A stretch of DNA of 64,000 nt from Minisyncoccota bacterium (lineage in GTDB: Bacteria; Patescibacteriota; Minisyncoccia; Phycocordibacterales; PALSA-1337): assembly GCA_041663145.1 (NCBI GenBank), contig JBAZRG010000001.1:156942-220941 (forward strand). The letters run 5' to 3'. The notes below the pieces were generated by a model, which saw only the letters and a list, made by a program, of their open reading frames with translations, ran no database searches and had not been told where the DNA came from. Numbering within the stretch: position 1 is the stretch's first letter; each line of letters opens with the position of its first letter. Below, piece by piece: positions 36,948 through 64,000 of this stretch. Both the position numbers and the translations under genes were made by a program.

Positions 36948-37568
36948 ATTCCGACAGGACGGTGAAAACTTCGCATGAGCGTTTCAGTGGTCATTCCACT
37001 CCAGTGGTTTCCACGACTGATTCTGTACATGCAAAGTGCTTCATCGTTCTATCGGAGCTATCGAAAGCTCCGATTATACCTAACACGTTCTGTTTCCTCC
37101 GCCTCTTGTTAGGTGGCGGGGGCAGAGCGAAACCGTGAAAGTCGGTAACTAAAATGGTCAACATTGATTTAGCTCACAACTTCGCAGACAAAAACTGTGA
37201 CATCTGTGAGGGCGAGGGTGTGGTGTGTAGCTGGGACGGTCAAAGCGAGGCATGTCTATGTGTTCGTAAACATCATCGTGAAGTCGCCGATGAAATGAGA
37301 TTAGAAGATTCACTACAAACAGTATGAATAAAATCTACATAAGAGAACAGCAAAAGCACTTCTTCTTTGAAAGAAAAGTACACAAAGCATTAGACATTAT
37401 CAGTCTCACTATGTTGGTCGGCATGGTGATCGTAGCTTACTTCTAACATGGACGACGTAGTTATTAAATTGATGGGAGAAGTTGTTAAAACTTCTCAAAA
37501 TAGATTGGATAAATTGCTTGAAGAATTGACCGCCATAAGTCAGAGCTTAAAAGCGATAAACGACGCCT

Positions 37569-37793
37569 TTGACACTAGAAATAAACGATATGACAGCAGA
37601 CCCAATTAAAAACTACATAGCAAAACTTCCACCTTCAACTGTAAACAACAGTCGAGAGAGGGTGCGAGAGATTTACAAGAAGTCACAGAAGGAAAGGTAC
37701 GGAGGTCATTTCTCAAGAGAGATAGAGGAGATTACAGGCGAGCCTTCAGATCGTACAGGTTACGACACCGGCTCTGAACCAGAGAGACGTTAA
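37569..37793 (+). CDS. hypothetical phage protein
   Basis: 74-aa ORF. Confidence 0.3.
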   Translation: MTLEINDMTADPIKNYIAKLPPSTVNNSRERVREIYKKSQKERYGGHFSREIEEITGEPSDRTGYDTGSEPERR

Positions 37794-37811
37794 AAACTAA
37801 TAAACAATAAC

Positions 37812-38315
37812 ATGAATGAAACAGACTTTTTGCCAGTAGATTACAAGATACCGGAGACTTCAAATTATATGAAGTTTCAAGATGGTGACAACGCTTTTAG
37901 GATTCTATCATCAGCCATTACGGGTTCTGAATACTTCAAGGCAGATAACAAACCAGTACGTTCAAAAGAGCCTTTTGACACTATTCCTGATGATATTAAA
38001 AAGGGTGGAGCAGTAAAAACTTTTTGGGCTTTCTTAGTTTGGAATTACGAAGCCAAGAGAATACAGATACTCGAACTTACACAGAAAGGAATTATGAAGA
38101 CTATTCAGTCTTACACTAAAAATCCAAAGTGGGGTAATCCAAAAGAGTATGACTTCATCGTAACAAGGACAGGAAGCGGAATGGACACTGAATACGCCAT
38201 AACAGTTAATCCAAAGTTTCCGTTAGACGAAGTGGTAACCGCCCAGTACGAAAAGATGAGTGTAGACCTTAACGCTCTATACGAAGGACTTGATCCGTTC
38301 AGTGTAGATAAATAA
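37812..38315 (+). CDS. hypothetical phage early protein
   Basis: 167 aa. It is first in a replication/recombination-type module. No confident family was recognised. Confidence 0.45.
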   Translation: MNETDFLPVDYKIPETSNYMKFQDGDNAFRILSSAITGSEYFKADNKPVRSKEPFDTIPDDIKKGGAVKTFWAFLVWNYEAKRIQILELTQKGIMKTIQSYTKNPKWGNPKEYDFIVTRTGSGMDTEYAITVNPKFPLDEVVTAQYEKMSVDLNALYEGLDPFSVDK

Positions 38316-38317
38316 CC

Positions 38318-38587
38318 ATGAAACAGACGCAGTTAAACTTCATAAAAGAACAGTTGTTACGGACTGGTGAGATCAGCCGTAACTTCTGTCTTAGAAACTA
38401 CATAAGCCGTCTTGGAGCGAGAATCGACAACATGAAGCGTGAGGGCTACAGCTTTGATGTGGAAAGACGTGACGGAGATTACGTCTATAAGCTCAAAACT
38501 GACCCCACACGCCCGCCTCAAGTACCAGAGCAGTACAAACGAGAGATTATTAACCAATCAGCACTCTTTACGAGAGCGCAAATGTAA
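38318..38587 (+). CDS. HTH_39-like helix-turn-helix DNA-binding protein
   Basis: ...GEISRNFCLRNYISRLGARIDNMKREGYSF matches the winged-HTH pattern common in phage regulators. Confidence 0.45.
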   Translation: MKQTQLNFIKEQLLRTGEISRNFCLRNYISRLGARIDNMKREGYSFDVERRDGDYVYKLKTDPTRPPQVPEQYKREIINQSALFTRAQM

Positions 38588-39324
38588 TGGCAAGACTACG
38601 TGTAATCAATACAAGGTTTTGGAATGACGATTACATCGCCAGACTAGACCCACTAGAAAGATACCTATTCCTATACTTTTTAACGAATCCAGCTACTGAC
38701 ATAAGCGGTATATATGAATTGCCATTAAGAACAGTTGCCGCTGAAACTGGTATAGAAGCCGATATGTTGAAAATGATGATGGATAGGTTCGCAACTGATA
38801 GCAAAATCTACTACTTTAACGGCTGGGTTTTTGTCAAAAACTTCTCAAAACACCAGACGATGAACCCAAAGATCAAAACTGGCATCGAATTAAGTCTAAA
38901 ACGAGTTCCGACTGAGGTTTTAAGCCATTTTGGTATAGAGCAACCATACTCTATAGATAGTCTATCGCATTCTAATTCTAATTCTAATTCTAATCCTAAT
39001 CCTAATTCTAATCCTAATTCTAAGTTAGCACCGCAGGCGGTGCAGGAGATATCGGTTAACGATTGTATATCTCTGTTTGAACCAATCAATCCGACCTTCG
39101 AGAGATTGTACTCAAACAAAAGTCAGAGGTCGGCAATGGATCGCTTACTTAAAAAGTTTGGTGGTGAAAAAATGATTGCTACTTTGCGTGAACTTCCGAA
39201 GCTCATAAACAAACCGTATGCCCCAACGATCACCACGCCTATCCAGCTTGAATCAAAGCTCGGTTCGCTAATCAGTTTCTATTACAAGCAAAAAAGTAAT
39301 GTAACAACAATTATCGGCTTATGA
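38587..39324 (+). CDS. putative phage replication/replisome-organizer-like protein with an internal (SN/PN)n low-complexity linker
   Basis: The N-terminal domain ...YLFLYFLTNPATDISGIYELPLRTVAAETG resembles phage replication initiator/organizer N-termini. A hexanucleotide repeat at 38971-39023 encodes SNSNSNSNPNPNSNPNS. Confidence 0.4.
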   Translation: MARLRVINTRFWNDDYIARLDPLERYLFLYFLTNPATDISGIYELPLRTVAAETGIEADMLKMMMDRFATDSKIYYFNGWVFVKNFSKHQTMNPKIKTGIELSLKRVPTEVLSHFGIEQPYSIDSLSHSNSNSNSNPNPNSNPNSKLAPQAVQEISVNDCISLFEPINPTFERLYSNKSQRSAMDRLLKKFGGEKMIATLRELPKLINKPYAPTITTPIQLESKLGSLISFYYKQKSNVTTIIGL

Positions 39325-39635
39325 AAAAAGAAGAATTACTAAAAAAGATTGGCGGGTTGGAATTACAAGTCAAAACTCTTGAGGAGTTTCAGATTGAACA
39401 ATTAAAAGAACTTGCAAAAGCATTTAACTGGAAAAAGCCAACTCGTTCCTATGGTAGTTACGACGAAGGCGAAGCTAAATTGCCGACATGGGGAGAAGTT
39501 TTTGTTGAGATTGGTCGGTTGTTAGCAAAGCAAAAGTATATTGAAAATATGGAACGAATAGACGGCTTTGATTTCAGACTTGGAGATATTGAAGCAAATG
39601 TTAGAAACATTCTTAAAAATAAAATCAATGACTAA
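39321..39635 (+). CDS. hypothetical phage protein
   Basis: 104-aa ORF; its start ATG overlaps the upstream stop (ATGA). Confidence 0.4.
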   Translation: MKKEELLKKIGGLELQVKTLEEFQIEQLKELAKAFNWKKPTRSYGSYDEGEAKLPTWGEVFVEIGRLLAKQKYIENMERIDGFDFRLGDIEANVRNILKNKIND

Positions 39636-39921
39636 CTTCTACCTAATTCAAATGTCACGTGGCATACCGATACCGATTGATGCCGAAGAACTACAGAAAG
39701 TCTTGCAGGGTATACAAACCAAAAGTCCGGTCATCGTAAAGCAGGGAATATTCAATCCAAGTTTCTTTGTAAGCATTATCGAAGATTCAGATAGAAAACA
39801 GGGATGGAATCGAGAGCTTGGCGGCGACAAGTACATGCTGACAACTAAAGAACCATTACCAGATTTGTTTGAGGAGATGCGGTCGAATCTCGTTAAGCTA
39901 GTTACTTTACCGCATGACTAA
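39628..39921 (+). CDS. hypothetical phage protein
   Basis: The ORF is open from 39568. The start was chosen at the ATG that overlaps the upstream stop. Confidence 0.35.
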   Translation: MTNFYLIQMSRGIPIPIDAEELQKVLQGIQTKSPVIVKQGIFNPSFFVSIIEDSDRKQGWNRELGGDKYMLTTKEPLPDLFEEMRSNLVKLVTLPHD

Positions 39922-39976
39922 CCACCTTCTCATTCGATCAGGTTCAGGGAGGCATCTGATCGGGTAGGAAACAAAC

Positions 39977-40360
39977 ATGAATTTATTTTACGCAAAGAGT
40001 ACGAAAGGAGAGTTGATCTTTGACAACAAAAAAGCAATCCAAGATTATCTGTTCACGGTAGACGGTAAAGCACTGATCGTGAAGATTGAAAGGGAAACTG
40101 GCAGACGTTCGCAAAGTCAAAATAACTTCTACTGGTCATATCTAACAATCATCGCTAACGAGACCGGACACACCGAAAATGAATTGCACGAGCTGTTCAA
40201 GAGAATCTTCCTACCACCGCAGTACAAAACAATTCTAGGTCGAGAAGTGAAGTTACCGGCTTCGACTACGAACCTTAACAAAGTGGAATTTGGCGAGTAC
40301 ATGGACAAAATCTGTGCCGAAACAAATGTACCAATTCCTGATCCAAACCTATTCCCATGA
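39977..40360 (+). CDS. ninB: NinB/Orf-family recombination protein
   Basis: ...RSQSQNNFYWSYLTII... and the C-terminal ...ASTTNLNKVEFGEYMDKI... parallel lambda Orf motifs (RSLDQNRKLWACLGDV; GQSTSRMRVGEFAELLELI). Confidence 0.5.
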   Translation: MNLFYAKSTKGELIFDNKKAIQDYLFTVDGKALIVKIERETGRRSQSQNNFYWSYLTIIANETGHTENELHELFKRIFLPPQYKTILGREVKLPASTTNLNKVEFGEYMDKICAETNVPIPDPNLFP

Positions 40361-40638
40361 AATCCCGCATTATAAAAAACTGTAGAACATGTGGAAAGGA
40401 AATGTCTTTACGCCCAAGCATAGGTCATCAAAGTTTCTGTTCACATTATTGCTACGTTCAAAGCCGTTTAGGTATCCCGCTTTCAGAAGAGAAAAAGATT
40501 GAGATTGTCGAGATGATACTCAAGCCTAAAACATCTAACTGGGTAGGTGACAGTGCGGTATCAAGAGCAACAGGCGCAACAATTCATCAAGTTAGGCGCA
40601 TTCGGGAGAAATTACAAGTGTTCAATGAAAAAAGATGA
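40357..40638 (+). CDS. zinc-ribbon plus HTH small protein
   Basis: CRTCGK...CSHYC and the C-terminal ...ATGATIHQVRRIREKL. Confidence 0.4.
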   Translation: MKSRIIKNCRTCGKEMSLRPSIGHQSFCSHYCYVQSRLGIPLSEEKKIEIVEMILKPKTSNWVGDSAVSRATGATIHQVRRIREKLQVFNEKR

Positions 40639-41189
40639 AACGCTCGCCACTAAAGAAAAAGTCGAAATTACCAATCAGTAGATTGCAGAGGCAAATCTGG
40701 GAATACTTGTTATTTCTTTCTGCCAAAAGAACATATAAAAAATTACAAAATAAAAATGTATTTTCAATGAAAGACGCTAAAAAATGTATCAGGTGTGGTA
40801 AGTCTTATAGTCCAACATACAATATTTCTCAAAAAGAATGGGATAAGCAAAAATATTGTACTCGTGAATGCTCATATAAAGACAGAGTTAGTATTAAAAA
40901 TCCTCAGTCTGAAGAAGGTAGAAAGAAGATGTCGCTGTCAAAGATTGGTAGAAATAATCCTAATTACAAAGAAAACGGTACGACATTAAACGCATTGCAT
41001 AGGTATATGGAAAAAAGAGTTCCCAAACCGAAATGTTGTGAGATATGTAAAATTGCTACTCCGTTAGATTTAGCCAATAAGGGAAAATATTGTCGTGATG
41101 TTAAAGAGTGGTACTGGTTATGTAGAAGATGTCACATGTTATCAGATGGGAGAATGAAAAATTTGTCTCAATATAATGAAAAGAAATAA
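40635..41189 (+). CDS. NinG-like N-terminus fused to NUMOD3 repeats and an HNH-like Cys/His cluster (homing-endonuclease-like)
   Basis: The N-terminus MKRSPLKKKSKLPISRLQRQIWEYL parallels the downstream NinG-like gene. NUMOD3-like SEEGRKKMSLSKIGRNNPNYK. C-terminal CCEICK...WLCRRCH. Confidence 0.45.
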   Translation: MKRSPLKKKSKLPISRLQRQIWEYLLFLSAKRTYKKLQNKNVFSMKDAKKCIRCGKSYSPTYNISQKEWDKQKYCTRECSYKDRVSIKNPQSEEGRKKMSLSKIGRNNPNYKENGTTLNALHRYMEKRVPKPKCCEICKIATPLDLANKGKYCRDVKEWYWLCRRCHMLSDGRMKNLSQYNEKK

Positions 41190-41571
41190 ATTAAAGAAGC
41201 AAAGCAAACAACCAATAAGCAGGCTTCAGAGGAAAATTTGGAGTTTGTGCAAACTTATTATCAGAAAAAAATATCCACACGAATGTTACACTTGTGGCGC
41301 AAAAAATCTATCAGGTTCTAACCTTCATACCGGACACATGTGGGCAAAGGCAAGTCTGGGAGCGTTCCTAAAGTACGACCTACGAGTGTTACGCCCACAG
41401 TGTTACAACTGCAACATAAACAGGGGAGGAATGGGGGCAGACTTCTACAAAAAAATGCTAAACGAAATCGGGCAAGTAGAAATGGAAAAGCTCGAAAGAG
41501 ATAGGCAAGTGAGTGTGAAAGCGTATGACCATTACTTAAAAATATTATCAGAATATCAAAAACTAGTATGA
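41176..41571 (+). CDS. ninG: NinG/Rap-family protein (recombination-associated HNH-like)
   Basis: C.TCG...TGH...LR....C..CN..RGG....Y...L.EIGQ..E.LE aligns with lambda NinG (CISCG...AGH...LRF...C.VCN..K.G....Y...L..IGQ). Confidence 0.55.
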   Translation: MKRNKLKKQSKQPISRLQRKIWSLCKLIIRKKYPHECYTCGAKNLSGSNLHTGHMWAKASLGAFLKYDLRVLRPQCYNCNINRGGMGADFYKKMLNEIGQVEMEKLERDRQVSVKAYDHYLKILSEYQKLV

Positions 41572-41729
41572 CTAACGAGGCACTAAAAAATGGATTTCTG
41601 GCAACACTGGCTGACGATGAACAGGGCGGCATCTGGGTTTACTGCAATGAAAAAGACCCGAACAGAAAAGGTTTCCTACTTAAATGCTGCAAAGGTTGTA
41701 AACATAATCCATATGAACTAACACGATAA
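41568..41729 (+). CDS. small Cys-rich phage protein (weak)
   Basis: 53 aa. ATGA overlap with the ninG stop. The C-terminus CCKGCKHNPYE. Confidence 0.25.
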   Translation: MTNEALKNGFLATLADDEQGGIWVYCNEKDPNRKGFLLKCCKGCKHNPYELTR

Positions 41730-42021
41730 AACATTCCTCGCTATGTTCGCCCTCTTACTCGCTATCATCTCAATCCCCATTATTATCTTAATAGCAATTA
41801 TATGAACATGATACTCGCTTTCTGGTGGTTACCAATTTGGGCAGTCTTTATGGTGGTAGGGCTGCTTTCAGGAGATGTTAGCTTCACCATAACTGCGTTG
41901 TTTATAGCAGTGTTAGGAATGGGAGTGAATCTTATTCGCTTTATTAGTTCATTCAGATAAAACTACTATGACCCTACAACAAACAATTGATAGTACGGTG
42001 AAAGTTGCATGATATGACCAC

Positions 42022-42573
42022 ATGATATATACTGTGAGTATGATTTCATCAAAACATAATATATCAATAAAAGACTACCGAGATATTCATTACTGGTTAA
42101 AAAAGAATTTTGGTAAAGCAGAAAGATGTTACAACAAAGATTGTGAAAAAAAATCAACCGTATATCAATGGGCAAAAATAAAAGACAAAAAATATGTTAA
42201 AGATAGAAATAGTTTTACTCAATTATGTAGATCATGTCATTCAAAAGAAGATATAACTCAAGAGACGAAAGACAAGATTTCAAAGGCACACAAAGGCAGA
42301 AAACTATCCGAAGCACATAAAGAAAAGATACGACAATTCAACATAGGTAGGAAACACCCAAATTATCAGAAGACAAGAGAAACGAAAGACAAACTAGCAA
42401 AGAGATACACATTTAACGGAAAAACATTGAATCTTAGAGAATGGTCAGAGATAACAGGATTGCAGAAAAATACTCTCTGGACTCGTATAAATTCGTATAA
42501 TTGGACAATAGCAGATGCAATGACTATACCGTATTGTAAACACCTTAAAAAATATCATGCAAAAAATAATTAA
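42022..42573 (+). CDS. HNH homing endonuclease with NUMOD3 motifs
   Basis: ...CRSCHSKED... followed by tandem NUMOD3-like TKDKISKAHKGRKLSEAHKEKIRQFNIGRKHPNY and a C-terminal DNA-binding tail. Confidence 0.55.
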   Translation: MIYTVSMISSKHNISIKDYRDIHYWLKKNFGKAERCYNKDCEKKSTVYQWAKIKDKKYVKDRNSFTQLCRSCHSKEDITQETKDKISKAHKGRKLSEAHKEKIRQFNIGRKHPNYQKTRETKDKLAKRYTFNGKTLNLREWSEITGLQKNTLWTRINSYNWTIADAMTIPYCKHLKKYHAKNN

Positions 42574-42838
42574 CAAAATTTTGAAAGAGTACGATGATTA
42601 CTTCTTTGAAGCAACACATGGTCGAAATGATGTTAGGCGAGAAAAGATTATCTCCTCAATCAAAAAAGCAGTGGAGATGGCGTTCAAAGAGATAGAGGTG
42701 GAGAAAGAAGTTAAAATATATAGAAAAGACGAGCAAGGTAATACAAGGAAATTGGCAGTGGCAATGCTTAAAAGTGAAGGCTTCAACTCCGCCCTCTCCC
42801 TCATTGAGAAGAAGAAAAGTTTATTTCTTAACAAATGA
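42557..42838 (+). CDS. hypothetical phage protein
   Basis: 93-aa ORF. Confidence 0.35.
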   Translation: MQKIINKILKEYDDYFFEATHGRNDVRREKIISSIKKAVEMAFKEIEVEKEVKIYRKDEQGNTRKLAVAMLKSEGFNSALSLIEKKKSLFLNK

Positions 42839-42841
42839 TGT

Positions 42842-43018
42842 ATGAAAGAAAAATACTCACAAAAAATGCAGTGCGAAAATTGCGGAGACACTTTTGAGAC
42901 CGATTTTTCAATGGGTGTTTCATGCAAAAGGCTTCAAGTTTGTAAAAATTGCGGGTGCTTGTCAGCTCGTGCTACCGGTGTTCCTAAAAGACCGTACTCA
43001 GGATACATGAATAACTAA
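42842..43018 (+). CDS. small zinc-ribbon protein (weak)
   Basis: 58 aa; CENCG...CKNCGC. Confidence 0.25.
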   Translation: MKEKYSQKMQCENCGDTFETDFSMGVSCKRLQVCKNCGCLSARATGVPKRPYSGYMNN

Positions 43019-43069
43019 CCCACCCCCAAGTCGAGTGGGGAGTAAGGTAAGAGAGGTTAAATAAAACAC

Positions 43070-43237
43070 ATGAAACGCCATATCGAAAAAATCGTAAAAG
43101 TTTGTGGATTGCCAGAAGAATTTGTGTCTGAATATGTACTAGGCGCAAGTTCGGCAGAAGAAGGCATCAGGCGAATGAAAGAGTATGTGAAATGCGTCAG
43201 AAAGGTTGAAAAAGAGGATTTATTGTCACAGAAATAG
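43070..43237 (+). CDS. small hypothetical protein (weak)
   Basis: 55 aa, preceded by a small hairpin at 43024-43040. Confidence 0.25.
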   Translation: MKRHIEKIVKVCGLPEEFVSEYVLGASSAEEGIRRMKEYVKCVRKVEKEDLLSQK

Positions 43238-43528
43238 TGCACATTAACAACGTAAAGAGAATCAAAAGCTGGAGATGGCGCAAAAGGTGAGACGCTAGGG
43301 TGTATGCAAATGATTCTGGCGCATACCCCGACTATACATGGGTCGATAGCCCCGCATGACGATGTAGCCAGCATCTGGTTAAAAGCCAAAGATACATGCG
43401 AAAGACCTGCAAGGTGACCAAGTGAGTGTAGCCGAGTTAGGAAATTACTCACATAAGAAATCCTTGCTCTCCAGCTCTTGGTTCTTTTTACAAAACACCC
43501 AACTTAGTAACTATTAAATGTAACTACC

Positions 43529-43909
43529 ATGCAATACAAAAACAAAACAACAGGTGAGCTCATAGACTTAGACAATTTTGAAGAAGTAAAAGAACCATTA
43601 GACGGTTTCAAGAATTCTGTAAAACAAGTGATTGAAGGCAAGACTTTAGAATGGGGTGAGGTGTCAGATAGAGAAATGGACTGGTTTGAAGCCAAGGCGT
43701 GGTGTGAAGAAAGAGGTGGTCGATTACCAACACGAGTTGAACTCTTACAAGCATTTGATGAAAAAGTAGAAGGCTTCCAAGGTTTCTACTTCTGGTCGTC
43801 TACCGAGTACTATAATAATACGGCTCTCGCTTGGCCCGTGAACTTGGCCAGCGGCTACACTAACTTTAACACCAAGACTAATAGCGGCTACGTACGTTGT
43901 GTCCGTTAA
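43529..43909 (+). CDS. DUF1566 (Lcl C-terminal-like) domain protein
   Basis: W..ERGGRLPTRVELLQAF......YFWSSTEY...ALAW.V....G......K...GYVRCVR matches the DUF1566 signature. Confidence 0.55.
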   Translation: MQYKNKTTGELIDLDNFEEVKEPLDGFKNSVKQVIEGKTLEWGEVSDREMDWFEAKAWCEERGGRLPTRVELLQAFDEKVEGFQGFYFWSSTEYYNNTALAWPVNLASGYTNFNTKTNSGYVRCVR

Positions 43910-43921
43910 GGCAATAAATAT

Positions 43922-44092: not shown

Positions 44093-44241
44093 AATATATT
44101 TTCAACATGTTAGGTTTTGCTATTATAGGATTTGCCACAGCTCATGGTGGTATATCATTGGCGGATATATCTTTTTGGTTAATTCTTCTCGGAGTATTTA
44201 TTGTCAATTTTAACAGTATAAACAATAACCAACCTTACTAG
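44089..44241 (+). CDS. small membrane peptide (weak)
   Basis: 50 aa, two hydrophobic segments. It is preceded by the AAATTGAGATGAA motif. Confidence 0.25.
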   Translation: MKYIFNMLGFAIIGFATAHGGISLADISFWLILLGVFIVNFNSINNNQPY

Positions 44242-44256
44242 CTAATTAAAATTGAG

Positions 44257-44505
44257 ATGAAGGAACCACATACTACACAATTTCACACGGCAGAAGCGTG
44301 GGAAAAAGGTTTATCAGAAACATTCCGTAACTGGGTAGCTCCATATATACTACGCAATGCAAAACCACTAAGCAAGGCGAGGTTAGCTAAATTAAAAAAG
44401 AAAAGGATTGAATATATAAAGAAAGAGAAGAATAGGCGAGCCAAGAAAATAACTATGACAGTCGGGGAATTGGAGGATAAATTAGAAGAAGCAAGTGATT
44501 ATTAG
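44257..44505 (+). CDS. hypothetical phage protein
   Basis: 82 aa, Lys/Arg-rich C-terminus. The same upstream motif. Confidence 0.35.
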   Translation: MKEPHTTQFHTAEAWEKGLSETFRNWVAPYILRNAKPLSKARLAKLKKKRIEYIKKEKNRRAKKITMTVGELEDKLEEASDY

Positions 44506-44520
44506 CTAATTAAAAATTAG

Positions 44521-44724
44521 ATGAAAGGAACAAATATATTTTTAGGTGAGCTAGACTTGAAAGAGCGAGGAACGGCAATCGAAAGTTCTATACAAAAAGG
44601 TAGATGGGTTTATGCTCGCCCAGTTGGCTACATCTCGTTTTGGCACACTCTAAAATGTGCTTGGAAAGTATTAACACACAAGGCTGATATAGTCGTATGG
44701 AACGAGCCTGGAAACAATTACTAA
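44521..44724 (+). CDS. hypothetical phage protein
   Basis: 67 aa; the same upstream motif. Confidence 0.35.
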   Translation: MKGTNIFLGELDLKERGTAIESSIQKGRWVYARPVGYISFWHTLKCAWKVLTHKADIVVWNEPGNNY

Positions 44725-44725
44725 C

Positions 44726-45148: not shown

Positions 45149-45159
45149 CATTACAAACC

Positions 45160-45463: not shown

Positions 45464-46129
45464 ATGAAAATACTCGATGCGTGTTGTGGGGGAAGGACAT
45501 TCTGGTTTGATAAAAAACATCCCGATACCTTGTTCGTTGATAAAAGAGTGATGCAACCAAGAACAATCGGAAACGGAAAAAATGCTCGAACCCGAAGATG
45601 TTTACCAGATAAAGTGATGGACTTCCGCAATTTGGAGTTTTCTGACAACACTTTTTCTTTAGTAGTGTTTGACCCACCACACTTGAAAACGCTCGGTGCC
45701 AATAGTTACATGGCGGCGATGTATGGTGTGCTTGATAAAGATACTTGGCAAGAAGACCTAAAAAAAGGATTTGCCGAATGTTTTAGAGTGTTGAAACCAG
45801 ATGGTGTTCTTATTTTCAAATGGTGTGAGTATGAGATACCATTGAGTCAAATTCTAAAACTCACTCCTGTTGCGCCATTATTCGGACACCCAAGTGGTAA
45901 GCAACAAAAAACGCATTGGGTAACATTTATGAAACAAACCCCGCCCACAGAGGGCACAAAGATATTCGAAGGAAAAAACAGCTCACTTAGAAAGACATAT
46001 GAAGCGGCGGTTACACCAGAGACATGTGAATATATGATTATGACCCCAAGTCCACTTCACAACGGTGGCATGTGGTGCGCCGAACCGTATCCTTGTAAGT
46101 TTCATGGAGAGTGGAAATTAAACAGATAA
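45464..46129 (+). CDS. putative SAM-dependent DNA methyltransferase (amino-methyltransferase-like)
   Basis: N-terminal ILDACCGGRTFWFD (motif I-like) and VVFDPPH (a DPPY/H-like motif IV). Confidence 0.45.
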   Translation: MKILDACCGGRTFWFDKKHPDTLFVDKRVMQPRTIGNGKNARTRRCLPDKVMDFRNLEFSDNTFSLVVFDPPHLKTLGANSYMAAMYGVLDKDTWQEDLKKGFAECFRVLKPDGVLIFKWCEYEIPLSQILKLTPVAPLFGHPSGKQQKTHWVTFMKQTPPTEGTKIFEGKNSSLRKTYEAAVTPETCEYMIMTPSPLHNGGMWCAEPYPCKFHGEWKLNR

Positions 46130-47585: not shown

Positions 47586-48164
47586 ATGGCAAAAGTAGGC
47601 AGACCAACAGATATAAGTTTGAATAGATGTCCACTTTGTAATGGATGTGGTGCTATTAATTATGATTTGGAAATCGCCTTAAAGGAAAAATTAAAACTTT
47701 ATGATGATAAGAAAATACCACAAAGTGCTATAACAAAAAGTATTTATGAAGTGTTATTCCTAAAGTATGGTTTTACACCAACTATTGGGGAAGCATTGGA
47801 GTTTTTTGAGATTCCTAATATTTCGATTTACAAATTCTTTTTGAGTAAAATCCAGAAAATTGGAATGGCTTTTATAAATGAAAAAGTTAATCAAAGACTT
47901 TCAAGAAGAAAAAGAATGCTTGCGATTATTTCGACAGATGATGGATCAATTACAAGGGAAACTCTTGATTCTTTAATCAAATCGCAGAATTTTAAGTGTA
48001 ATCTATGTAAGTGTTCAATAGTTGAGAGAGGTAACAGGCATGCAGATCATATAACGCCCTTATCAAAAGGAGGTGAACATCAGATAAATAACATTCAATG
48101 GTTATGTATTAATTGCAATGTGCATAAGAGTAATAAGATTAATTTCAATTTCAATGAAAAATAA
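47586..48164 (+). CDS. HNH endonuclease (terminase-associated)
   Basis: The C-terminus CNLCKC...HADHITPLSKGGEHQINNIQWLCINCNVHKSNK. It lies immediately upstream of the terminase genes. Confidence 0.6.
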   Translation: MAKVGRPTDISLNRCPLCNGCGAINYDLEIALKEKLKLYDDKKIPQSAITKSIYEVLFLKYGFTPTIGEALEFFEIPNISIYKFFLSKIQKIGMAFINEKVNQRLSRRKRMLAIISTDDGSITRETLDSLIKSQNFKCNLCKCSIVERGNRHADHITPLSKGGEHQINNIQWLCINCNVHKSNKINFNFNEK

Positions 48165-54469: not shown

Positions 54470-55252
54470 ATGCTAGTAGCAGAGAAAATCTGCACAGTAG
54501 ATCGCACTGAATCAAAATACATTCAGAACCCTTATCAGACAGCTCCTACAGCGGTCGTTCAAGCCGTAGTCGGAACATACGCAACAGCCGCTTTCACAAC
54601 GACTGAAGATGCTCTTACAGTAGCCGATGAGGTTTACTGTGCAGAACACATCTACGATTTTGAAGCCGCTCTTGCTCACTTCGACCTTTTCGCCGCTCGT
54701 GTAGACGACATGACTGCTTCGGTTGCAACAGCAATTGATAAGTATGTCTTGAACGTGCTCGTAGACGCTGGTACAGGTGCTTACACAACACTAACAGGCG
54801 GATTTACAACAGCCGCAAACTGGAATGTTATTCTCGCTAACTTGCTTTCAAAGTTTGCAGGTTATGCCGATAACTTCCGTGGTATGTACTTGGTTGTAGA
54901 GAATACCGACTTGGTAGGTATCGTGCAGTCACAAATGGCTTCTGGCTTTAATTTCGCCGATGCCGCTCTCAATAACGGTTTGGTTTCAAATCAAGCTGGT
55001 ATAGAGATTTACGTTGTCCGATCTGGCACGTTTGCTAGCTACACACCGGGTTCTTACGGTGCAGTTACAAACTCTGGTCACAGAATGGCAGGTATAAAGG
55101 GAATCTCCATTTATGCCGCTCCTCGTGGAATCCAGTACGAAGAGAAGTCTGTTAGTGCCAAGACTGGAAAAGAAGTAGTTGTCTGGGGCTATATCGGAGC
55201 CAAAACATGGGCGCCTAAGCTCGGTTTGGTCATCGACATCACAATCGCCTAA
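54470..55252 (+). CDS. major capsid protein candidate
   Basis: 260 aa, Ala/Gly/Thr-rich, directly after the scaffold-like gene. Assigned by position. Confidence 0.4.
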   Translation: MLVAEKICTVDRTESKYIQNPYQTAPTAVVQAVVGTYATAAFTTTEDALTVADEVYCAEHIYDFEAALAHFDLFAARVDDMTASVATAIDKYVLNVLVDAGTGAYTTLTGGFTTAANWNVILANLLSKFAGYADNFRGMYLVVENTDLVGIVQSQMASGFNFADAALNNGLVSNQAGIEIYVVRSGTFASYTPGSYGAVTNSGHRMAGIKGISIYAAPRGIQYEEKSVSAKTGKEVVVWGYIGAKTWAPKLGLVIDITIA

Positions 55253-56215: not shown

Positions 56216-56291
56216 TTGATCTCACTCTTTTCTCATGTTCAGAAGCTATCGACCTGAACGTGGGAGAGATAGTGCGATTAAATAAAAAAAT

Positions 56292-57056: not shown

Positions 57057-57077
57057 TTAACAAATTAAAAAAATAAC

Positions 57078-57536
57078 ATGCAAAACACAATCAAAATAAA
57101 AGGGACTGTTGAGATAAAGCAAATTAGAAATGGAGAGGTCATTAAAAGTTTCAAGGGTGAGAACATAATTACAAATGCAGGGAAAGCACAGATAGCTCTT
57201 CTTGCAGGAGATGCTACTGCTGTTCCGTTCACTTATTTAGCAGTTGGAACAGGGTCTACCGCCGCCGCTGTGACCGATACTACGTTAGTCACCGAAATAA
57301 CCGATACAGGTCTTGCACGTGCCGCAGCAACAGTCTCTCGTACAACAACAACAGTTACAAATGACACTTTATCTTTGTCATACACATGGACAGCAACAGG
57401 AGCAAAGACGATAGCAGAAGTCGGTATGTTCAATGCTTCTTCATCGGGAACGATGCTAGGAAGAAAACTAACGAGTGCAATAACAACCGCAAATACAGAC
57501 CAAATAGTAATGACCTACACAGTAGCGTTCGCATAA
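57078..57536 (+). CDS. hypothetical virion-region protein
   Basis: 152 aa, Thr/Ala-rich. Confidence 0.4.
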   Translation: MQNTIKIKGTVEIKQIRNGEVIKSFKGENIITNAGKAQIALLAGDATAVPFTYLAVGTGSTAAAVTDTTLVTEITDTGLARAAATVSRTTTTVTNDTLSLSYTWTATGAKTIAEVGMFNASSSGTMLGRKLTSAITTANTDQIVMTYTVAFA

Positions 57537-57540
57537 AACA

Positions 57541-58335
57541 ATGGCTATAGCAGTAGATACAACTTCAAATTCGGCAACCGCATCATGGTCTCACACGTGT
57601 ACTGGGGCTAACCTTATTTTGATTGTAGCTGTTCGTGCTAACGCTTCAGGAGCTAGTACCTCTTGTACTTATAATGGCGTAGGAATGACACAGCTTTCAG
57701 CTAGACCGTACAATTCCTCAAATGCACACCTAGTTACATTTTATCTATTAAATCCTGCAACTGGTGCGAATACCATTACTGCTACTACAGGTAGCCCCGA
57801 TTATGGCTGTGCGGTGTCTTATACAGGTGTAGCTGGTATTGATAGTTCAGGTAACAGTGCCAGTAACCAAAATAATGATACTGCTTCTGGTTCGGTGACT
57901 ACCGTAGCAGATAATTCAAGAGCAATAATGACTGTTGGACAAGGAGGTGGGGCGACACAAACGGCGGGTGCAAGCACAACTAAAAGAATAGCTAGTGCAA
58001 CAAGTGATATAAATGCCATCTTTGACCCAAATGCCAACAAAACACCAGCTGGAGCAGTTACTTTAATTTCTACTTTTACAAGTGGAGTTAATGCATGGCA
58101 GACATTCTCGATTAAACCATCAATTACCTATACAGAGAATATATCAGACTCTATAGCTTTAACTGAATCTGTTAGTTGGGGAAATAAGATATCAGAGTTG
58201 ATAACAATGGTGACTGTGAATTTTGAGAATGTATCAGATTCGATAGGAATGACTGACACCATACAAACGTTCAACAGATTGTGGAAAAATCTAGTTAAAT
58301 CAGTAACCACATGGACTAATCAAGACAAATCGTAA
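57541..58335 (+). CDS. hypothetical virion-region protein (Ser/Thr/Ala/Gly-rich)
   Basis: 264 aa. Confidence 0.4.
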   Translation: MAIAVDTTSNSATASWSHTCTGANLILIVAVRANASGASTSCTYNGVGMTQLSARPYNSSNAHLVTFYLLNPATGANTITATTGSPDYGCAVSYTGVAGIDSSGNSASNQNNDTASGSVTTVADNSRAIMTVGQGGGATQTAGASTTKRIASATSDINAIFDPNANKTPAGAVTLISTFTSGVNAWQTFSIKPSITYTENISDSIALTESVSWGNKISELITMVTVNFENVSDSIGMTDTIQTFNRLWKNLVKSVTTWTNQDKS

Positions 58336-58622
58336 TGCAAGAACAAATATTACAATTAGCTAGACGAGTTGAAGTTCTTGAAAGAGAGAATAGACTTTTG
58401 AAATCTTCAAAGAGTATTCCTCTTGATATTGATCAAGCGTTTAGAGCAAGATTTCTTTCGGATATACCAGACCCTATATTAGCTAATTCAAAGTCTGCCA
58501 GTAGTGAAAATCAGGTAGTAGATGAGGGTGGTTCCGCAACTTATAGTGTTTTGCAACCACCAGATGCGTTTGCTTCTACTATTATTGGGACGACCACAAT
58601 TTATTTACCTTATTACACTTAA
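58335..58622 (+). CDS. hypothetical protein
   Basis: 95 aa; its start overlaps the upstream stop. Confidence 0.3.
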   Translation: MQEQILQLARRVEVLERENRLLKSSKSIPLDIDQAFRARFLSDIPDPILANSKSASSENQVVDEGGSATYSVLQPPDAFASTIIGTTTIYLPYYT

Positions 58623-58623
58623 C

Positions 58624-60435
58624 ATGTCATATAAACTACCTCTAAATGGGCAATGGACACAGCCAAATCTTGGTGATAATCAAGGATCACTTTGGGGTAC
58701 GTTTAATGTAGATCTAACAAAAAAGAAAGGTTCTATATTTGGTACTCGCATGATTTCAAATGGTTCGCTTTCCAGTTATAGTGGACTTACAAATTTGGGT
58801 CTTGCCACAAGTTTTGCAAGAATAGATATGGGAGATGGTATTCAATATTGGACTGTTGCAGGTAGTAAAGTGTTCAAATCAGTGGCGGCAAGTTTCCCTA
58901 CCACGTTTATTGAAGATGATTTATCAGGAAGCCCAACAACATGTAGTTCTCGTTGTTCGGACATGAAAGTATTTAACGAGTCATTGTATGTTACGACAGC
59001 ATCAAGAGTTGTGTACAAGTTAGGTGGAGCTGGTTGGAGTAGTTTTACTGCAGGTAATGTTAACAGCAATTCTCATCTTTTGGCAGTTTATGGAAATAGA
59101 TTGTATATGACAACTGAAGTTTGCAAAATTATTTCATGGGATAGTGCTGATACTGTGGCTTCCTCTGGTTCGTATACTATCAATCTTGAATCAGCTGGTC
59201 TTGGTTCTGAAACTGAGAATATCATCACATTTCTTACTCCCGCTTCAAATGGGATATGGATAGGTACGGTCAATCGCTATGGACTGAATGCTAGGGTGTA
59301 TTTTTGGGACGGGGTTACGGCTGATACATTTGAAAACGCATATTCAATAAACTCTACTGGCGCAATGGCATGTGTCATAAAAGATGATGTCCCTGTTATT
59401 TTGAATAATGATGGTGTGCTTGGTCAATTGAATGGTGCAACATTTGTCGAAATCGCTAGATTCCCCATCAGAAATAAGAAAATGCTTACAAATGCTTTTT
59501 CATTCTATAATGATAGGTGGGTTCACCCGAATGGGATTGGAATAGTTAATGGTCGTGTCAATATCCTCGTTAATCTAGGGGAGATGTCAAATAATTCTCA
59601 AAATGAAGAAAACTGTCCTTCTGGTATTTGGGAATACGACCCTGATATTGGCTTATATCACAAATATTCTCCTTCCTATTATGACATAACATCAAGTCCA
59701 TCGGTGACTGATTATGGACAATCAAGACTTTGTGAAGTGGGTGAGGATGTCTCAGCTGGGGCTGGTGCGATAGTCTCTATTAAAAATCAATCTAATGTAG
59801 CTGATAAAAATGGTTCGGTTTTGGCGGGGTTTAGATTTTATACCGATGCAACAACAGCAAAATACGGGATATTTTCTGATGATAGTAATTCAACGATCCA
59901 AACATATTCACACATAATTACTTCACGATTACCAGCAACATCTTTACAAGATATTTGGAATAACGTATACGCATTTCACAAACCATTTCTTTCTTCTACT
60001 GATAAAATAATAGTTAAATATCGTACTACTGATTTGGAACCAGTAGAGACAACTATTACTTGGTCAAATACTACAGGATTTACAACAACAGCCGATTTAT
60101 CTGATTATGTTATAGGTGATGAGGTTGAAATTCTCCAGGGAATCTGGGGTGGTAGGACTTCTCATATAACTTCAATTCAGGCAACTGATTCAGGTTATAT
60201 GGTGGAAGTTGATGAAACTTATACGGGTGCTACAGGTACTTCTATTGCTCGATTTCAAAAATGGATAAAGGCAGGAACAATTACAAGTACAAATCAAGAT
60301 AGTGATGATTTAGGTAAAACTTTAATCGGAAAGACTAGGACTGATATTCAAATTAAAGTTTGCATGATTTCAACTGGTACAAACGAAATAAAAAGTATCG
60401 GTATAGTGAATAAAATCCATACTCAATTACAATAA
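58624..60435 (+). CDS. large tail/receptor-binding-like protein candidate
   Basis: ~600 aa. The start was chosen at MSYKLPLNG (58624), immediately after the upstream stop. The longer ORF-track start at 58522 overlaps the previous gene. Confidence 0.4.
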   Translation: MSYKLPLNGQWTQPNLGDNQGSLWGTFNVDLTKKKGSIFGTRMISNGSLSSYSGLTNLGLATSFARIDMGDGIQYWTVAGSKVFKSVAASFPTTFIEDDLSGSPTTCSSRCSDMKVFNESLYVTTASRVVYKLGGAGWSSFTAGNVNSNSHLLAVYGNRLYMTTEVCKIISWDSADTVASSGSYTINLESAGLGSETENIITFLTPASNGIWIGTVNRYGLNARVYFWDGVTADTFENAYSINSTGAMACVIKDDVPVILNNDGVLGQLNGATFVEIARFPIRNKKMLTNAFSFYNDRWVHPNGIGIVNGRVNILVNLGEMSNNSQNEENCPSGIWEYDPDIGLYHKYSPSYYDITSSPSVTDYGQSRLCEVGEDVSAGAGAIVSIKNQSNVADKNGSVLAGFRFYTDATTAKYGIFSDDSNSTIQTYSHIITSRLPATSLQDIWNNVYAFHKPFLSSTDKIIVKYRTTDLEPVETTITWSNTTGFTTTADLSDYVIGDEVEILQGIWGGRTSHITSIQATDSGYMVEVDETYTGATGTSIARFQKWIKAGTITSTNQDSDDLGKTLIGKTRTDIQIKVCMISTGTNEIKSIGIVNKIHTQLQ

Positions 60436-60445
60436 TATTAACAAT

Positions 60446-61948
60446 ATGCCTACACAACAAGAACAATTTGATACAGCTCTAAAAGGTTTAACGCCTGATG
60501 AACGAGCAACCTACACGAAAGCTAACCCGTCTGTAAATGTGGGCGGTGTTAATCAGTCATTAAATGGCTCAACTGGGGGTTATCAAGCGATTACATCAGA
60601 ATCCCTGCAACCACAATCTCCCATGAAATTGCCAACCCCAACGCCTTTAACTGGTGCTGTGGGACTTCAAGGTGCTATTGAGCAGGGTACGGCTTCGTAT
60701 ACGGCTTCTAGGGACGAGGAAAAGCGTCTAGCTGAACAGAACGCCGCCTTGAAAGCAAAGGAGACTGACATGACGACTTCTAAGCAAAGTTTGATGGATA
60801 AGATACTAGGTAGAGAATCAAAAACAGCACTTGAAGATACTACATATTCAGAAACTGTTGATCCTGCTAGAAAAGAACTTGATGATATAAATAGTCAAAT
60901 ATTGGCATCCCAACGTGCACAACAGAACGAAATTAAGTCTATTGAAAGAGAAACAATGTCAGAAGGTCAAAAGGCTGTAGTAGAAAGAGATATAAATAGA
61001 AAGTATATCTCAGAACAAGCTGATCTGGCAGTCATTCAGTATGCGCGACAGAATAACTACGCCCGTGCGAAAGAAATTGCTGATCGAAAGATAGCGGTAG
61101 TGTTAGAAAAAGATGCACAAGACATTGAATTATTAAAGTTTGCTTATGAAGAAAATAAGGAAGCGTTTAACAAGGATGAAACGAGACAGTACAACGAAAT
61201 GATTACTGAAAAAGAGAGAGCTCACGAGGAAAATAAGACTGCAATGAAGACGTTGAGTGATACTAAACTCGATCTGCTTAAGTCAGCGAGTGAACAAAGT
61301 GCGCCAAATTCAATACTACAAGCTATTCAGTCAGCAGAGACACCTGAACAGGCTTTGATAGCGGCTGGTAAATTTGGAGGAGATATATTAGAGAAAGAAC
61401 TAAAGCGAGCACAAATAGATAAGGCAGTTGCAGATGCTAAAGAAGCTCTCAATGGTAAAAGTGATGTAAAGTTAACAAGTGGACAGCAAGCTGCTTTGGG
61501 TTACGCAAATCGTGTTGCAGATGCAAATAAAATCATCAATGATATTGGTGGAAACTTCACTGGTCTAGGCAGTATTGTTGGTGGAATGATACCGAATACG
61601 TTAAAAACAAGCGAACGACAACAGTTTGAACAAGCACAAAGAAATTTTATAAATGCGGTTTTGAGACGAGAATCTGGTGCGGCTGTATCACCCGATGAAT
61701 TTGATAGCGCACGAAAGCAATACTTCCCTCAACCTGGCGATCAAACAGAAGTGCTTGAACAAAAGCAATTAAATCGTGAAAGAACACTTGAAAACTTGCT
61801 AAGAGAAGGAGGTCAAGATGTTGATACTCCTGTTCAACAAACAGTTGTAACCATAGGCAAGCAAAAAGTATTATCAGGTACTATAATTCAAAATGCTTCA
61901 GGACAAAAAGCTCGTGTCAATCCTGACGGCACAGTAACACCAATATGA
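60446..61948 (+). CDS. large virion protein with extended coiled-coil region
   Basis: 500 aa, a long helical Glu/Lys/Ala-rich region. Confidence 0.45.
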   Translation: MPTQQEQFDTALKGLTPDERATYTKANPSVNVGGVNQSLNGSTGGYQAITSESLQPQSPMKLPTPTPLTGAVGLQGAIEQGTASYTASRDEEKRLAEQNAALKAKETDMTTSKQSLMDKILGRESKTALEDTTYSETVDPARKELDDINSQILASQRAQQNEIKSIERETMSEGQKAVVERDINRKYISEQADLAVIQYARQNNYARAKEIADRKIAVVLEKDAQDIELLKFAYEENKEAFNKDETRQYNEMITEKERAHEENKTAMKTLSDTKLDLLKSASEQSAPNSILQAIQSAETPEQALIAAGKFGGDILEKELKRAQIDKAVADAKEALNGKSDVKLTSGQQAALGYANRVADANKIINDIGGNFTGLGSIVGGMIPNTLKTSERQQFEQAQRNFINAVLRRESGAAVSPDEFDSARKQYFPQPGDQTEVLEQKQLNRERTLENLLREGGQDVDTPVQQTVVTIGKQKVLSGTIIQNASGQKARVNPDGTVTPI

Positions 61949-63483
61949 AGCCAGAAGAATTTCTAAAGGGAGGAGAAATGACAGTCTTAACCGCAGATGA
62001 ATTTGTCGGGGATAGCGGTTTTACTGTTCTGGATCAGGACACTATAAAACAACCTAAATCGACGAAACCTAAATTGGTTCAGTTTGCGACAGGTGTAGCT
62101 AAAAGCACTATCACACCATTAGTTAATGTTGGAAAAGGAATTGCAAATCAGACTGTCGGGCGTGCTATCAATGCTATTCAAGGTGAAGGATTTAAGCCAA
62201 CAAAAGACAATAATCCTGCAGTTGACGCATTAAATGAAAAATCACAGTCAAGACTTGAAACTGCTGGAAAAATATCAGGTGATATTGTATCACTGGCAAT
62301 TCCAAGTGGGGCAGTCTCAAAAGCTACAAAAAGTCTTGGATTTATTGGTAAGACAGCCGCTCGTGCTGGAACATCTGGTGCTATTGTCTCTGCTCAAGAA
62401 GGTGAAGTTGGAACTGGTACAGGAATCGCTGTAGGTACAGAAGCAATTTTGCCAGGAGCTAGTAAATTGACTGGTATCGTTCTTGCACCTGTAAAAAGAC
62501 TTATCAAGTCACTGGCGTCTGGTCTATCTGGCGTGTCTTCAAAAGCGATAGAGTCAATTGTTGCTGAACCTAGCGTAGCAAAACAGATTGCGAAAGAGGT
62601 AGATGTCAGTGGTGTATCCAATGTCATAAAGAAAAATGCTGAAACTATCATCAATGGTGTATCGAAAGTACGTCAAGATGCTCGGAAAGCCTACGGTGAA
62701 GCGATCGGTGCTCTCAAAGCAGAGGACATTAAACCAGACGTGTTTCGTAAATCAGTTAGTGAAACTCTTGATAAGTATGGGTCAGTTGTTAAGAATGGAA
62801 CAAGGACTCTCACAAATGCTGAATTCGAAAATCCAACTCTTATAAAGAAGGCAAACGCATTGGTAAATAAGCTCTCAACCACGCCATTAGATGGACTTTC
62901 ACTAAATCGTCTTCAAAATGAAATTAATAATGCCGCTTTCAAAACTACGGGAAGTGATGCTGAAAGATTAGCATTCAACGCATTCGTAAAAGACTTATCA
63001 TCGTCTGTAAGAAAAGCAATAAATCAATCCACTGATAAATTGAAAGATATAAATAAAGCATATTCTACTGATCTACAACTTACTGAGGCGATCGAAGGAA
63101 TATTTGGTGGAGTAGAGTTTAAGAGTTTAGATGAAGTAAGAAAAGTATCTCAACAACTTGAGACATTGTTTAACAAAAAAGGAATTTCACCAGAAATAAT
63201 TGATGATTTTCTTACAAAAATTGGAGCAAAACCAAGTGAGTTCCGTGCATCAGAGGCAGTTAGACAGATAACTGATGTCGGCGAAAAAGCAAATCCTGTT
63301 GGACTTACACTGTCAGAGGTAATGAGAGGTCTAACAAGTTCTATTGTTACACCAAAAATAGTTAGAGATGTGTCAGTACTTACCGGACTGACTGAACAGG
63401 CATTACTTCCTGTGCTTGAAAAACTTGCACCAGCCGCTAGAGCGACATTTATCGATCTTATCCTTCAAGGAAAAGATAATTGA
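61945..63483 (+). CDS. large virion protein (Gly/Ala/Ser-rich)
   Basis: 512 aa; ATGA overlap with the upstream gene. Confidence 0.45.
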   Translation: MKPEEFLKGGEMTVLTADEFVGDSGFTVLDQDTIKQPKSTKPKLVQFATGVAKSTITPLVNVGKGIANQTVGRAINAIQGEGFKPTKDNNPAVDALNEKSQSRLETAGKISGDIVSLAIPSGAVSKATKSLGFIGKTAARAGTSGAIVSAQEGEVGTGTGIAVGTEAILPGASKLTGIVLAPVKRLIKSLASGLSGVSSKAIESIVAEPSVAKQIAKEVDVSGVSNVIKKNAETIINGVSKVRQDARKAYGEAIGALKAEDIKPDVFRKSVSETLDKYGSVVKNGTRTLTNAEFENPTLIKKANALVNKLSTTPLDGLSLNRLQNEINNAAFKTTGSDAERLAFNAFVKDLSSSVRKAINQSTDKLKDINKAYSTDLQLTEAIEGIFGGVEFKSLDEVRKVSQQLETLFNKKGISPEIIDDFLTKIGAKPSEFRASEAVRQITDVGEKANPVGLTLSEVMRGLTSSIVTPKIVRDVSVLTGLTEQALLPVLEKLAPAARATFIDLILQGKDN

Positions 63484-63579
63484 AGCTAGTCCGCCAAAGA
63501 ACCAAATACACACGACTATAGTGATGATTAGAAGAAATAATATTGAGGCGATCAAGAAGGCTAGAGCAATCATATTATT

Positions 63580-63972
63580 TTAGTTACAAGGTGTGATACT
63601 AATATCACCTTCAATAGAATCACCCACTTTGGTTCCATACGATTGATTACCTCCTGTACCGATATGTGTACCAGAATAAGCTGTTAGGACATAATGAAGA
63701 TTAGCTGTTTCGACTGGTAAATACGCATAGTGACTGTAATTCTTGTTTATTACTTGACCACCATTATAATTAAGGTTTCGCTGTCCTGATTCAGTATTTT
63801 CTAATACTGTGCCCTTAAAACTGGCAATAACTCTATCAACAGCAGACCAATTAGCCCCTATTTCTGCCAAATTACCTTCCTTTTTATCACATACTAATGA
63901 TCCAATACTCAAGTTAGGTGAAGTGTTTACTGCAGGTATAGAAGTAGGCGCAGGTGTACTTATTACTCCCAA
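63580..63972 (-). CDS. hypothetical protein on the minus strand (strand switch at the end of the structural array)
   Basis: 130-aa Gly/Thr/Asn-rich ORF with a beta-rich composition. Confidence 0.4.
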   Translation of the reverse strand: MGVISTPAPTSIPAVNTSPNLSIGSLVCDKKEGNLAEIGANWSAVDRVIASFKGTVLENTESGQRNLNYNGGQVINKNYSHYAYLPVETANLHYVLTAYSGTHIGTGGNQSYGTKVGDSIEGDISITPCN

Positions 63973-64000
63973 TACAGGCTGTTCGGTCTGAATGAACGCG

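Follow-up and report, generated by a model that had tools for sequence, protein, structure and literature searches.

A podovirus-like phage genome from a large uncultured family, probably integrated downstream of gltX in a Candidatus Paceibacterota chromosome

Previous studies have described prophages of Paceibacteria from New Zealand aquifers, which average ~44 kb and carry DNA methylase and glycosyltransferase genes (PMC12455944), and most phages of groundwater Patescibacteria have been predicted to be temperate (PMC12911398). Here, we analyzed a 64,000-nt stretch (“the window”) of contig JBAZRG010000001.1 (GCA_041663145.1), the proteins of which belong to an NCBI metagenome-assembled genome (MAG) of a Candidatus Paceibacterota bacterium (locus tags WC648_), and in which an array of phage genes directly follows the host genes gltX and an M23 peptidase gene. 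We consider it probable that this array is a genuine integrated podovirus-like phage genome that continues past 64 kb. Like the element studied here, the phages of both publications were predicted to be integrated in, or were co-binned with, Paceibacteria MAGs, but they were called by prediction software and not by junction analysis. They are also set apart by description, having a C-5 methylase and a group 1 glycosyltransferase, whereas the element has a phrog_954 methyltransferase and a family 2 glycosyltransferase (GT2). An earlier note on this DNA, made from the sequence alone, had guessed a host from the candidate phyla radiation (CPR), which is right, and had called a prophage in such a bacterium notable, which it is less so now that Paceibacteria prophages have been published.

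Podophages provide a second set of comparators, namely SU10 (Escherichia, Kuravirus), GP4 (Ralstonia), T7, and N4/DEV. The element appears to share with them a portal fold (SU10, N4/DEV, and T7), a head-to-tail adaptor of the SU10-type family, and a fibre similar to gp80 of GP4. Its portal is just 10–14% identical in sequence to those of SU10, T7, and N4/DEV; it has neither an RNA nor a DNA polymerase like those of T7 or N4; and, unlike SU10, GP4, T7, and N4, it has a replication module in the style of temperate phages, with a replisome organizer, a single-stranded DNA-binding protein (SSB), and NinB/NinG. The genomes of SU10 and N4 are larger than that of the element. Lambdoid phages (the lambda, HK97, and P22 group) have homologs of NinB/Orf and NinG/Rap in common with the element, and the HNH gene next to its terminase genes is placed as in HK97-like phages, but the window contains no cI/Cro/N/Q circuit, lambda O/P genes, siphovirus tail, or int/xis genes.

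The open reading frames (ORFs) of the window, including 29 small ones, were scanned with Pfam and PHROGs profiles. The phage gene array lies where it had been placed by eye, at 37,154–63,483, and is as dense and co-directional as claimed: some 50 ORFs, all on the + strand, make up 94% of this interval, and at least 20 genes have family matches. Degraded or pseudogenised structural genes, which the earlier note had named as a finding that would refute its reading, were not seen; the ~50 genes are full length, none is obviously broken, and TerL, portal, capsid, and adaptor have the same lengths as their respective homologs. This integrity suggests that the insertion is recent or has been maintained. 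On the other side of the boundary, positions 1–36.5 kb contain cellular genes, all on the + strand, which encode several aminoacyl-tRNA synthetases, RpoA, S13, DnaK/DnaJ, an AcrB/HlyD pair, FtsW, MurG, GluRS, and the M23 peptidase; hence, the phage DNA does adjoin core genes. Tetranucleotide frequencies correlate at 0.96 between the two halves of the host part, compared with 0.74–0.86 for host versus phage segments.

The source contig is 356,648 bp long and carries both the M23 gene (MFA6314942.1) and the gene for the last large protein of the array (512 aa; 61,945–63,483; MFA6314986.1/WC648_01270). If the WC648 tags are numbered from the start of the contig, this tag and the run of accessions would place the element well inside it. 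In the Logan assembly of run SRR18595301, a 15,387-bp contig is 100% identical to window positions 28,423–43,809 and thus spans the junction, reaching 8.7 kb into host sequence and 6.7 kb into phage sequence, and the graph has no branch at the junction. Among window proteins looked up in Logan, only TerL and the replisome organizer led to contigs. A second Logan contig (34,361 bp) runs unbranched from 43,780 to the equivalent of ~78.1 kb; in the part that was read, it is identical to the window up to 59,891. The absence of a branch at ~37 kb indicates that neither an unoccupied host site nor a junction of circularized phage is abundant in the SRR18595301 sample. The linkage between host and phage on the left side looks real.

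These data bear on the possibility of an assembly or binning artefact, that is, a free phage genome wrongly joined to a Paceibacterota contig. The family to which the element belongs is otherwise found almost only on contigs of at most 46 kb and has no detectable integrase, the window has no att site, tRNA, or integrase, and the junction falls at the boundary between lysis and early genes, where the ends of a linear genome would lie if the join were false. Still, the identical join occurs in two assemblies (the 356-kb MAG contig and the Logan contig), in the latter case with many kilobases of unbranched sequence on either side, and a false join needs a shared repeat, which would create branches. 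We regard a misjoin as very improbable.

The two SRR18595301 contigs meet at 43,780–43,809 with a 30-nt overlap, which falls within the Lcl_C gene, at the sequence for its conserved FYFWSSTEY motif. The break is probably due to a k-mer shared with other community members and does not mark the boundary of a mobile element, and it is not an att site, since the contig to its left already holds the host junction. We also considered whether the 34,361-bp contig could represent the phage in a free, circular form, with 43,780 as its start; this was rejected because the other contig crosses the junction unbranched and the break lies in the conserved Lcl_C motif.

Judged from profile matches and one structure model, the virion module is podovirus-like. 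The 613-aa portal ORF has no Pfam or PHROGs match, and searches of PDB sequences with the portal, the 603-aa protein, and the adaptor returned nothing. An AlphaFold model of the portal, built on 38 homologs and of moderate confidence (predicted local distance difference test score, pLDDT, of 65.6), was compared with the PDB using Foldseek; the top 50 matches were all phage portal or portal–tail assemblies, and the best ones came from the podophages SU10, DEV/N4, Pan3, and T7 (E values of 2e-11 to 1e-8). The adaptor was assigned through its family, in which 14 of the 24 aligned members, including the homolog in the close Logan relative L097, match PF24175 SU10_adaptor (best E value, 4.6e-10), while the window copy itself falls below the E 0.01 threshold. 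The fibre, which matches the Gp80 family of podophage GP4, completes this picture.

Several other genes of the module were assigned by position. Homologs of the 188-aa and 177-aa proteins, which have no Pfam or PHROGs match, occur in viral loci always between the portal and capsid genes, which makes them scaffold candidates. The 95-, 603-, 500-, and 512-aa proteins likewise lack a match to these families; their homologs in the tail module of relative L116 are 68, 39, 37, and 67% identical, respectively, and they are syntenic in L028, L053, and L095 as well, so that the three large ones are likely tail or internal virion proteins. The GT2 gene occupies the same position, between portal and scaffold genes, in the close Logan relatives L097 and L098 (70% amino acid identity) and is absent from all 61 relatives in IMG/VR. 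Its product may modify the capsid or the host surface.

This picture departs from the earlier note, which had described an intact lambdoid prophage, implying a long-tailed, cI/Cro-regulated phage. The homologs of NinB and NinG and the replication gene of the replisome-organizer type speak for such a phage; beyond NinB and NinG, the element has no lambda-like features, and these two are widespread recombination genes rather than lambdoid markers. Members of the P22 type among the lambdoid phages are short-tailed. Against a lambdoid phage, portal, adaptor, and fibre are all of podophage type; there is no lambda-type O/P; no cI/Cro repressor switch, HTH_3/XRE, or N/Q antitermination family was found in any ORF scanned; and no tape measure, tail tube, or tail assembly chaperone family matched an ORF of the window. 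An integrase is also missing from the window scans. The database comparison described next points the same way, and we give the lambdoid interpretation next to no credence.

Comparison of terminase and portal proteins with phage databases, a check that the earlier note had suggested, revealed a large uncultured family and no close match among deposited phages. Among 50,697 deposited phage genomes, portal and capsid had no match, and TerL was at most ~35% identical over part of its length. By contrast, 61 IMG/VR contigs carry a TerL that is 54–74% identical, and in these relatives TerL is followed in turn by portal, two small head proteins, capsid, and adaptor. More than 2,191 portal homologs with E < 1e-10 were found among 8,000 candidates scored, the longest of their contigs clustering at 36–39 kb. 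For the 512-aa protein, 50 homologs were found in addition to the database entry of the protein itself, and their contigs reach ~46 kb. Near-complete genomes of the family measure ~34–46 kb. Sequence similarity places the element in this very large family of uncultured phages.

Members of this family, such as IMGVR_UViG_3300033119_000600, 3300005664_001091, and 3300020037_002832 and the Logan contigs SRR22216447_25123 and SRR15603313_62814, resemble the element in TerL (54–80% identity), portal (46–88%), and capsid (50–94%), in having NinG, methyltransferase, and HNH genes in the early region, and in gene order from TerL to the tail. They differ in that they lie on phage-sized contigs, whereas the element is joined to a host chromosome, and in that fibre and endolysin genes follow their homolog of the 512-aa gene. 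GT2 is common only to the closest Logan relatives of the element, and the tail modules are mosaic. In IMGVR_UViG_3300033119_000600 (34,624 bp), TerL is split across the contig ends, which indicates a circular assembly. In this complete relative, all genes but one point the same way, and the head genes come after TerL, followed by the adaptor, five large tail proteins, a peptidoglycan-binding lysin candidate, and early genes (including NinG and a methylase).

Scans of genome and metagenome contigs for relatives yielded distant ones only. One family member (portal 63% identical) is found on a much longer contig, baeUEeVp of JGI sample 3300071358 (127,896 bp), which may represent either a concatemer or a further integrated copy. 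Upstream of its TerL, this contig encodes RtcB, PDDEXK_15, and an Acb2/Tad1-hairpin protein resembling an anti-defence sponge.

Taken together, the best explanation of the data is that 37.15–63.5 kb holds the early and structural genes of a tailed, podovirus-like phage that has integrated just downstream of gltX and the M23 gene. The gene order begins with small early ORFs, SSB, replisome organizer, NinB, NinG, and homing-type endonucleases, followed by Lcl_C and a DNA methyltransferase. It then proceeds through HNH, TerS, TerL, portal, GT2, the scaffold candidates, capsid, SU10-type adaptor, fibre, and minor tail protein to the three large proteins. Any integrase, attR, and further fibre and lysis genes would lie on the right side, past 64 kb, and the reverse-strand peptidoglycan-binding gene and small membrane ORF at the end of the window may begin that right-hand part. 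An attL would presumably lie within the noncoding left junction (36,721–37,153), where none was identified.

A number of observations weigh against an integrated phage of this kind. No integrase, repressor, Cro, or excisionase family was detected in any scanned ORF between 37.15 and 64 kb, and the junction has no tRNA, tmRNA, or dif-like target. Integrases were equally absent from the ten large tail, lysis, and early ORFs of the 34,624-bp relative (Pfam), from the Pfam gene tables of the L097, L116, L118, and P0034 contig stretches, and from the 25 families listed out of 43 that were hit by 113 further ORF clusters from relatives, weak singletons being possible in the other 18. Nearly all relatives lie on phage-sized contigs, as expected of free, possibly virulent phages. 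The fibre and Amidase_2 endolysin genes that follow the 512-aa homolog in relatives have no homolog anywhere in the window. Finally, SRR18595301 may represent the reads from which the MAG itself was built, so that the two assemblies are perhaps not independent data.

The missing integrase, which the earlier note had recorded together with the lack of a tRNA att site and which our ORF scans and tRNA/tmRNA search bear out for the window, prompts the question by which route a phage became integrated at a non-tRNA site when its family shows no detectable integrase. One idea is a non-canonical entry at an intergenic site, with neither integrase nor att site, for example through host or NinB/NinG-assisted recombination, by a family that otherwise looks free-living. 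We judge such an entry to be distinctly unlikely. If true, it would provide a rare direct assignment of a Paceibacterota host to a clade of >2,000 uncultured phages and an example of non-canonical lysogeny in ultra-small bacteria. Xer/dif-type integration was rejected, as the window has no dif-like site.

Whether the probable prophage is complete depends on its right side. The strand switch at ~63.5 kb, which the earlier note had taken as the only mark of the right end, is real, and the first reverse-strand gene (P0194) runs past the end of the window to ~64,401. Its 273-aa product, known in full from a 100% identical parent protein, combines an N-terminal PG_binding_1 domain (3.7e-12), encoded beyond the window, with an orphan C-terminal domain, and is apparently secreted, judging from an apparent signal peptide read by eye from the sequence. 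A full HMMER search returned the parent protein and one other match among 1.84 billion representatives; a word-index homolog search with the terminal fragment returned nothing, and a single-sequence structure model had a pLDDT of 40, too low to use. Downstream of P0194, and in frame with it, lies a small ORF (56 aa) that encodes a hydrophobic segment and a basic tail and that overlaps the 3' terminus of the gene for the 512-aa protein. It has no homolog in the viral loci compared, and calling it holin-like is only a guess. The pair could be a lysin/holin-like lysis cassette or another accessory module, the element then continuing, or it could mark the end of a truncated element.

In the latter case, the locus would be a defective prophage remnant, in which phage DNA ends at ~63.5–64.4 kb, the distal fibre and lysis genes and any lysogeny genes are lost, and host DNA follows. 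All relatives with the 512-aa gene have further + strand genes directly after it, and these have no homologs in the window. In L116, these genes encode proteins of 273, 1,445, 88, 392 (Laminin_G_3), 139, and 262 aa, followed by an Amidase_2 endolysin; in L118, proteins of 694, 92, 364, and 86 aa precede Amidase_2; and in L095, a fibre-like 290-aa protein comes next. The abrupt flip is atypical when set against the complete relative, which is co-directional bar one gene, and the window has no integrase or repressor match. On the other hand, all 50 genes are full length and tightly packed without decay, one fibre set is already present in the window, and the close relative L097 likewise switches strand after its last large tail gene. 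The orphan peptidoglycan-binding gene and the tiny membrane ORF are more readily seen as phage accessory or lysis genes than as conserved host genes. We consider a remnant doubtful. The reverse-strand gene is of an orphan, accessory type rather than one conserved in hosts, and a continuation of the element beyond the window is probable; we infer that it continues as a true prophage. Of the word “intact” in the earlier note, what stands is that the genes are undegraded; completeness is not established, the fibre and amidase endolysin genes of relatives being absent from the window.

If the phage is indeed integrated, the junction physically ties a member of an abundant uncultured podovirus-like family to a Paceibacterota host, and it does so on firmer evidence than most CPR phage–host links, which come from co-binning or prediction software. 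The GT2 inside the head module and the methyltransferase are candidate modifiers of the host surface or of DNA. Coordinates of the features discussed are collected in Table 1.

Table 1. Features of the host–phage boundary and of the phage gene array. Positions refer to the window; numbers after family names are E values.
Feature	Position	Strand	Basis or remark
gltX	33728-35059		upstream of the M23 gene
M23 peptidoglycan endopeptidase, last clear host gene	35124-36458	+	Peptidase_M23 2.5e-27; MFA6314942.1
Small membrane ORF, 72 aa, host or junction gene	36502-36720	+	Logan (L096) call: 59 aa from 36541
Left junction, noncoding, 434 bp	36721-37153		
Four small ORFs, start of phage early region	37154-37793	+	no significant Pfam match
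SSB-like protein	37812-38315	+	phrog_8542 1.3e-22; phrog_1192 (SSB) 1.5e-9
Small winged-helix-like protein	38318-38587	+	phrog_4973 3.6e-5; HTH_39 0.024
Replisome organizer/DnaD-like helicase loader, with SN/PN low-complexity linker	38587-39324	+	phrog_6251 6e-15; phrog_1701 1.1e-14
NinB/Orf recombination mediator	39977-40360	+	phrog_72 9.5e-16
NUMOD3-motif endonuclease-like protein	40635-41189	+	Pfam NUMOD3 1.3e-4
NinG/Rap junction endonuclease	41176-41571	+	Pfam NinG 7e-8; phrog_5034 4.8e-10
NUMOD3/HNH homing-endonuclease-like protein	42022-42573	+	Pfam NUMOD3 7.9e-7; phrog_3377; phrog_314
Lcl_C (DUF1566-type) domain protein	43529-43909	+	Pfam Lcl_C 3.4e-11
DNA methyltransferase	45464-46129	+	phrog_954 2.8e-68; Methyltransf_11 5e-5
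HNH endonuclease adjoining terminase genes	47586-48164	+	HNH_5 1.7e-9; HNH 7.5e-8
TerS	48118-48522	+	phrog_4102 8.6e-12; Logan (L001) gene call starts at 48154
TerL	48509-49891	+	Terminase_6N 3.2e-13; phrog_2 4.1e-41
Portal protein, 613 aa	50423-52264	+	AF2 model and Foldseek
GT2 glycosyltransferase, accessory, inside head module	52289-53134	+	Glycos_transf_2 2.8e-19
Two conserved head-assembly proteins (scaffold candidates), 188 and 177 aa	53131-54308	+	homologs in 41 and 27 viral loci
Major capsid protein	54470-55252	+	phrog_267 major head protein 3.8e-10; weak Phage_capsid_4; homologs in 45 viral loci
Head-to-tail adaptor, SU10 type, 254 aa	56292-57056	+	assigned via family
Fibre similar to gp80 of podophage GP4	57078-57536	+	Pfam Gp80 3.1e-6; phrog_5417 1.8e-18; phrog_4176 tail fiber 2.8e-9
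Minor tail protein	57541-58335	+	phrog_553 4e-10
95-aa protein and three large proteins (603, 500, 512 aa)	58335-63483	+	position and synteny
56-aa ORF, hydrophobic segment and basic tail	63403-63573	-	translation
P0194, 273 aa (C-terminal 139 aa in window)	63580-64000, to ~64,401	-	100% identical parent; full HMMER

Most gene labels of the earlier note (replisome organizer, NinB, NinG, NUMOD3, methyltransferase, HNH, TerS, TerL, and GT2) agree with the profile matches in Table 1, and only HTH_39 is marginal. The left junction is noncoding and free of tRNA genes, as had been described. One terminator-like hairpin was found within it, at 36,923–36,943. No tRNA or tmRNA was found anywhere in the window, and an Rfam scan of the window gave no family at gathering score, the junction region yielding one chance-level match (E 0.99); an RNA gene at the junction was rejected on these grounds. 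With regard to att sites, a repeat search of the window gave no meaningful direct repeat. The small membrane ORF just before the junction has no homolog in the viral loci compared. Compared as a possible empty site, the only related host locus (L063, from a distant relative) keeps the gltX–M23 order; its M23 protein is 44% identical, and other genes, none of them present in the window, lie downstream. The host part also encodes a Sigma70_r4 plus HARE-HTH protein (1205–2239), and its HlyD/AcrB efflux pair (23073–28030) is of the RND type, which we had not expected in a genome of this kind.

In the early region, NinG is bracketed by the two NUMOD3-type endonuclease-like genes, and a third endonuclease gene (HNH) adjoins TerS. 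Relatives carry similar endonuclease genes elsewhere (in L062, between scaffold and capsid genes), which suggests that these are mobile, homing-type insertions. A different phage (L120; IMGVR_UViG_3300020047_007088, 1140–2660 and 6322–7725) has SSB-like and NinG genes that are ~71% identical to those of the window, which points to exchange of early modules between phage families. This phage also carries a GroEL-like chaperonin gene and an ORF with a GT-dinucleotide repeat; as a different, mosaic phage, it was rejected as a clue to the att site.

Two repeats were noted in the phage part. The replisome-organizer gene contains a hexanucleotide repeat (ATTCTA/ATCCTA) of about nine units at 38,969–39,023, which encodes a SNSNSNPNPNSNPNS linker and is a possible slippage-prone tract. 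The intergenic motif TTAyTAGCTAATTAAAA...AGATGAA is repeated at 44,235–44,272 and 44,499–44,536, with weaker copies at 37,790–37,827 and 58,477–58,492. It lies directly upstream of small phage genes and may be a phage promoter or translation-start signal.

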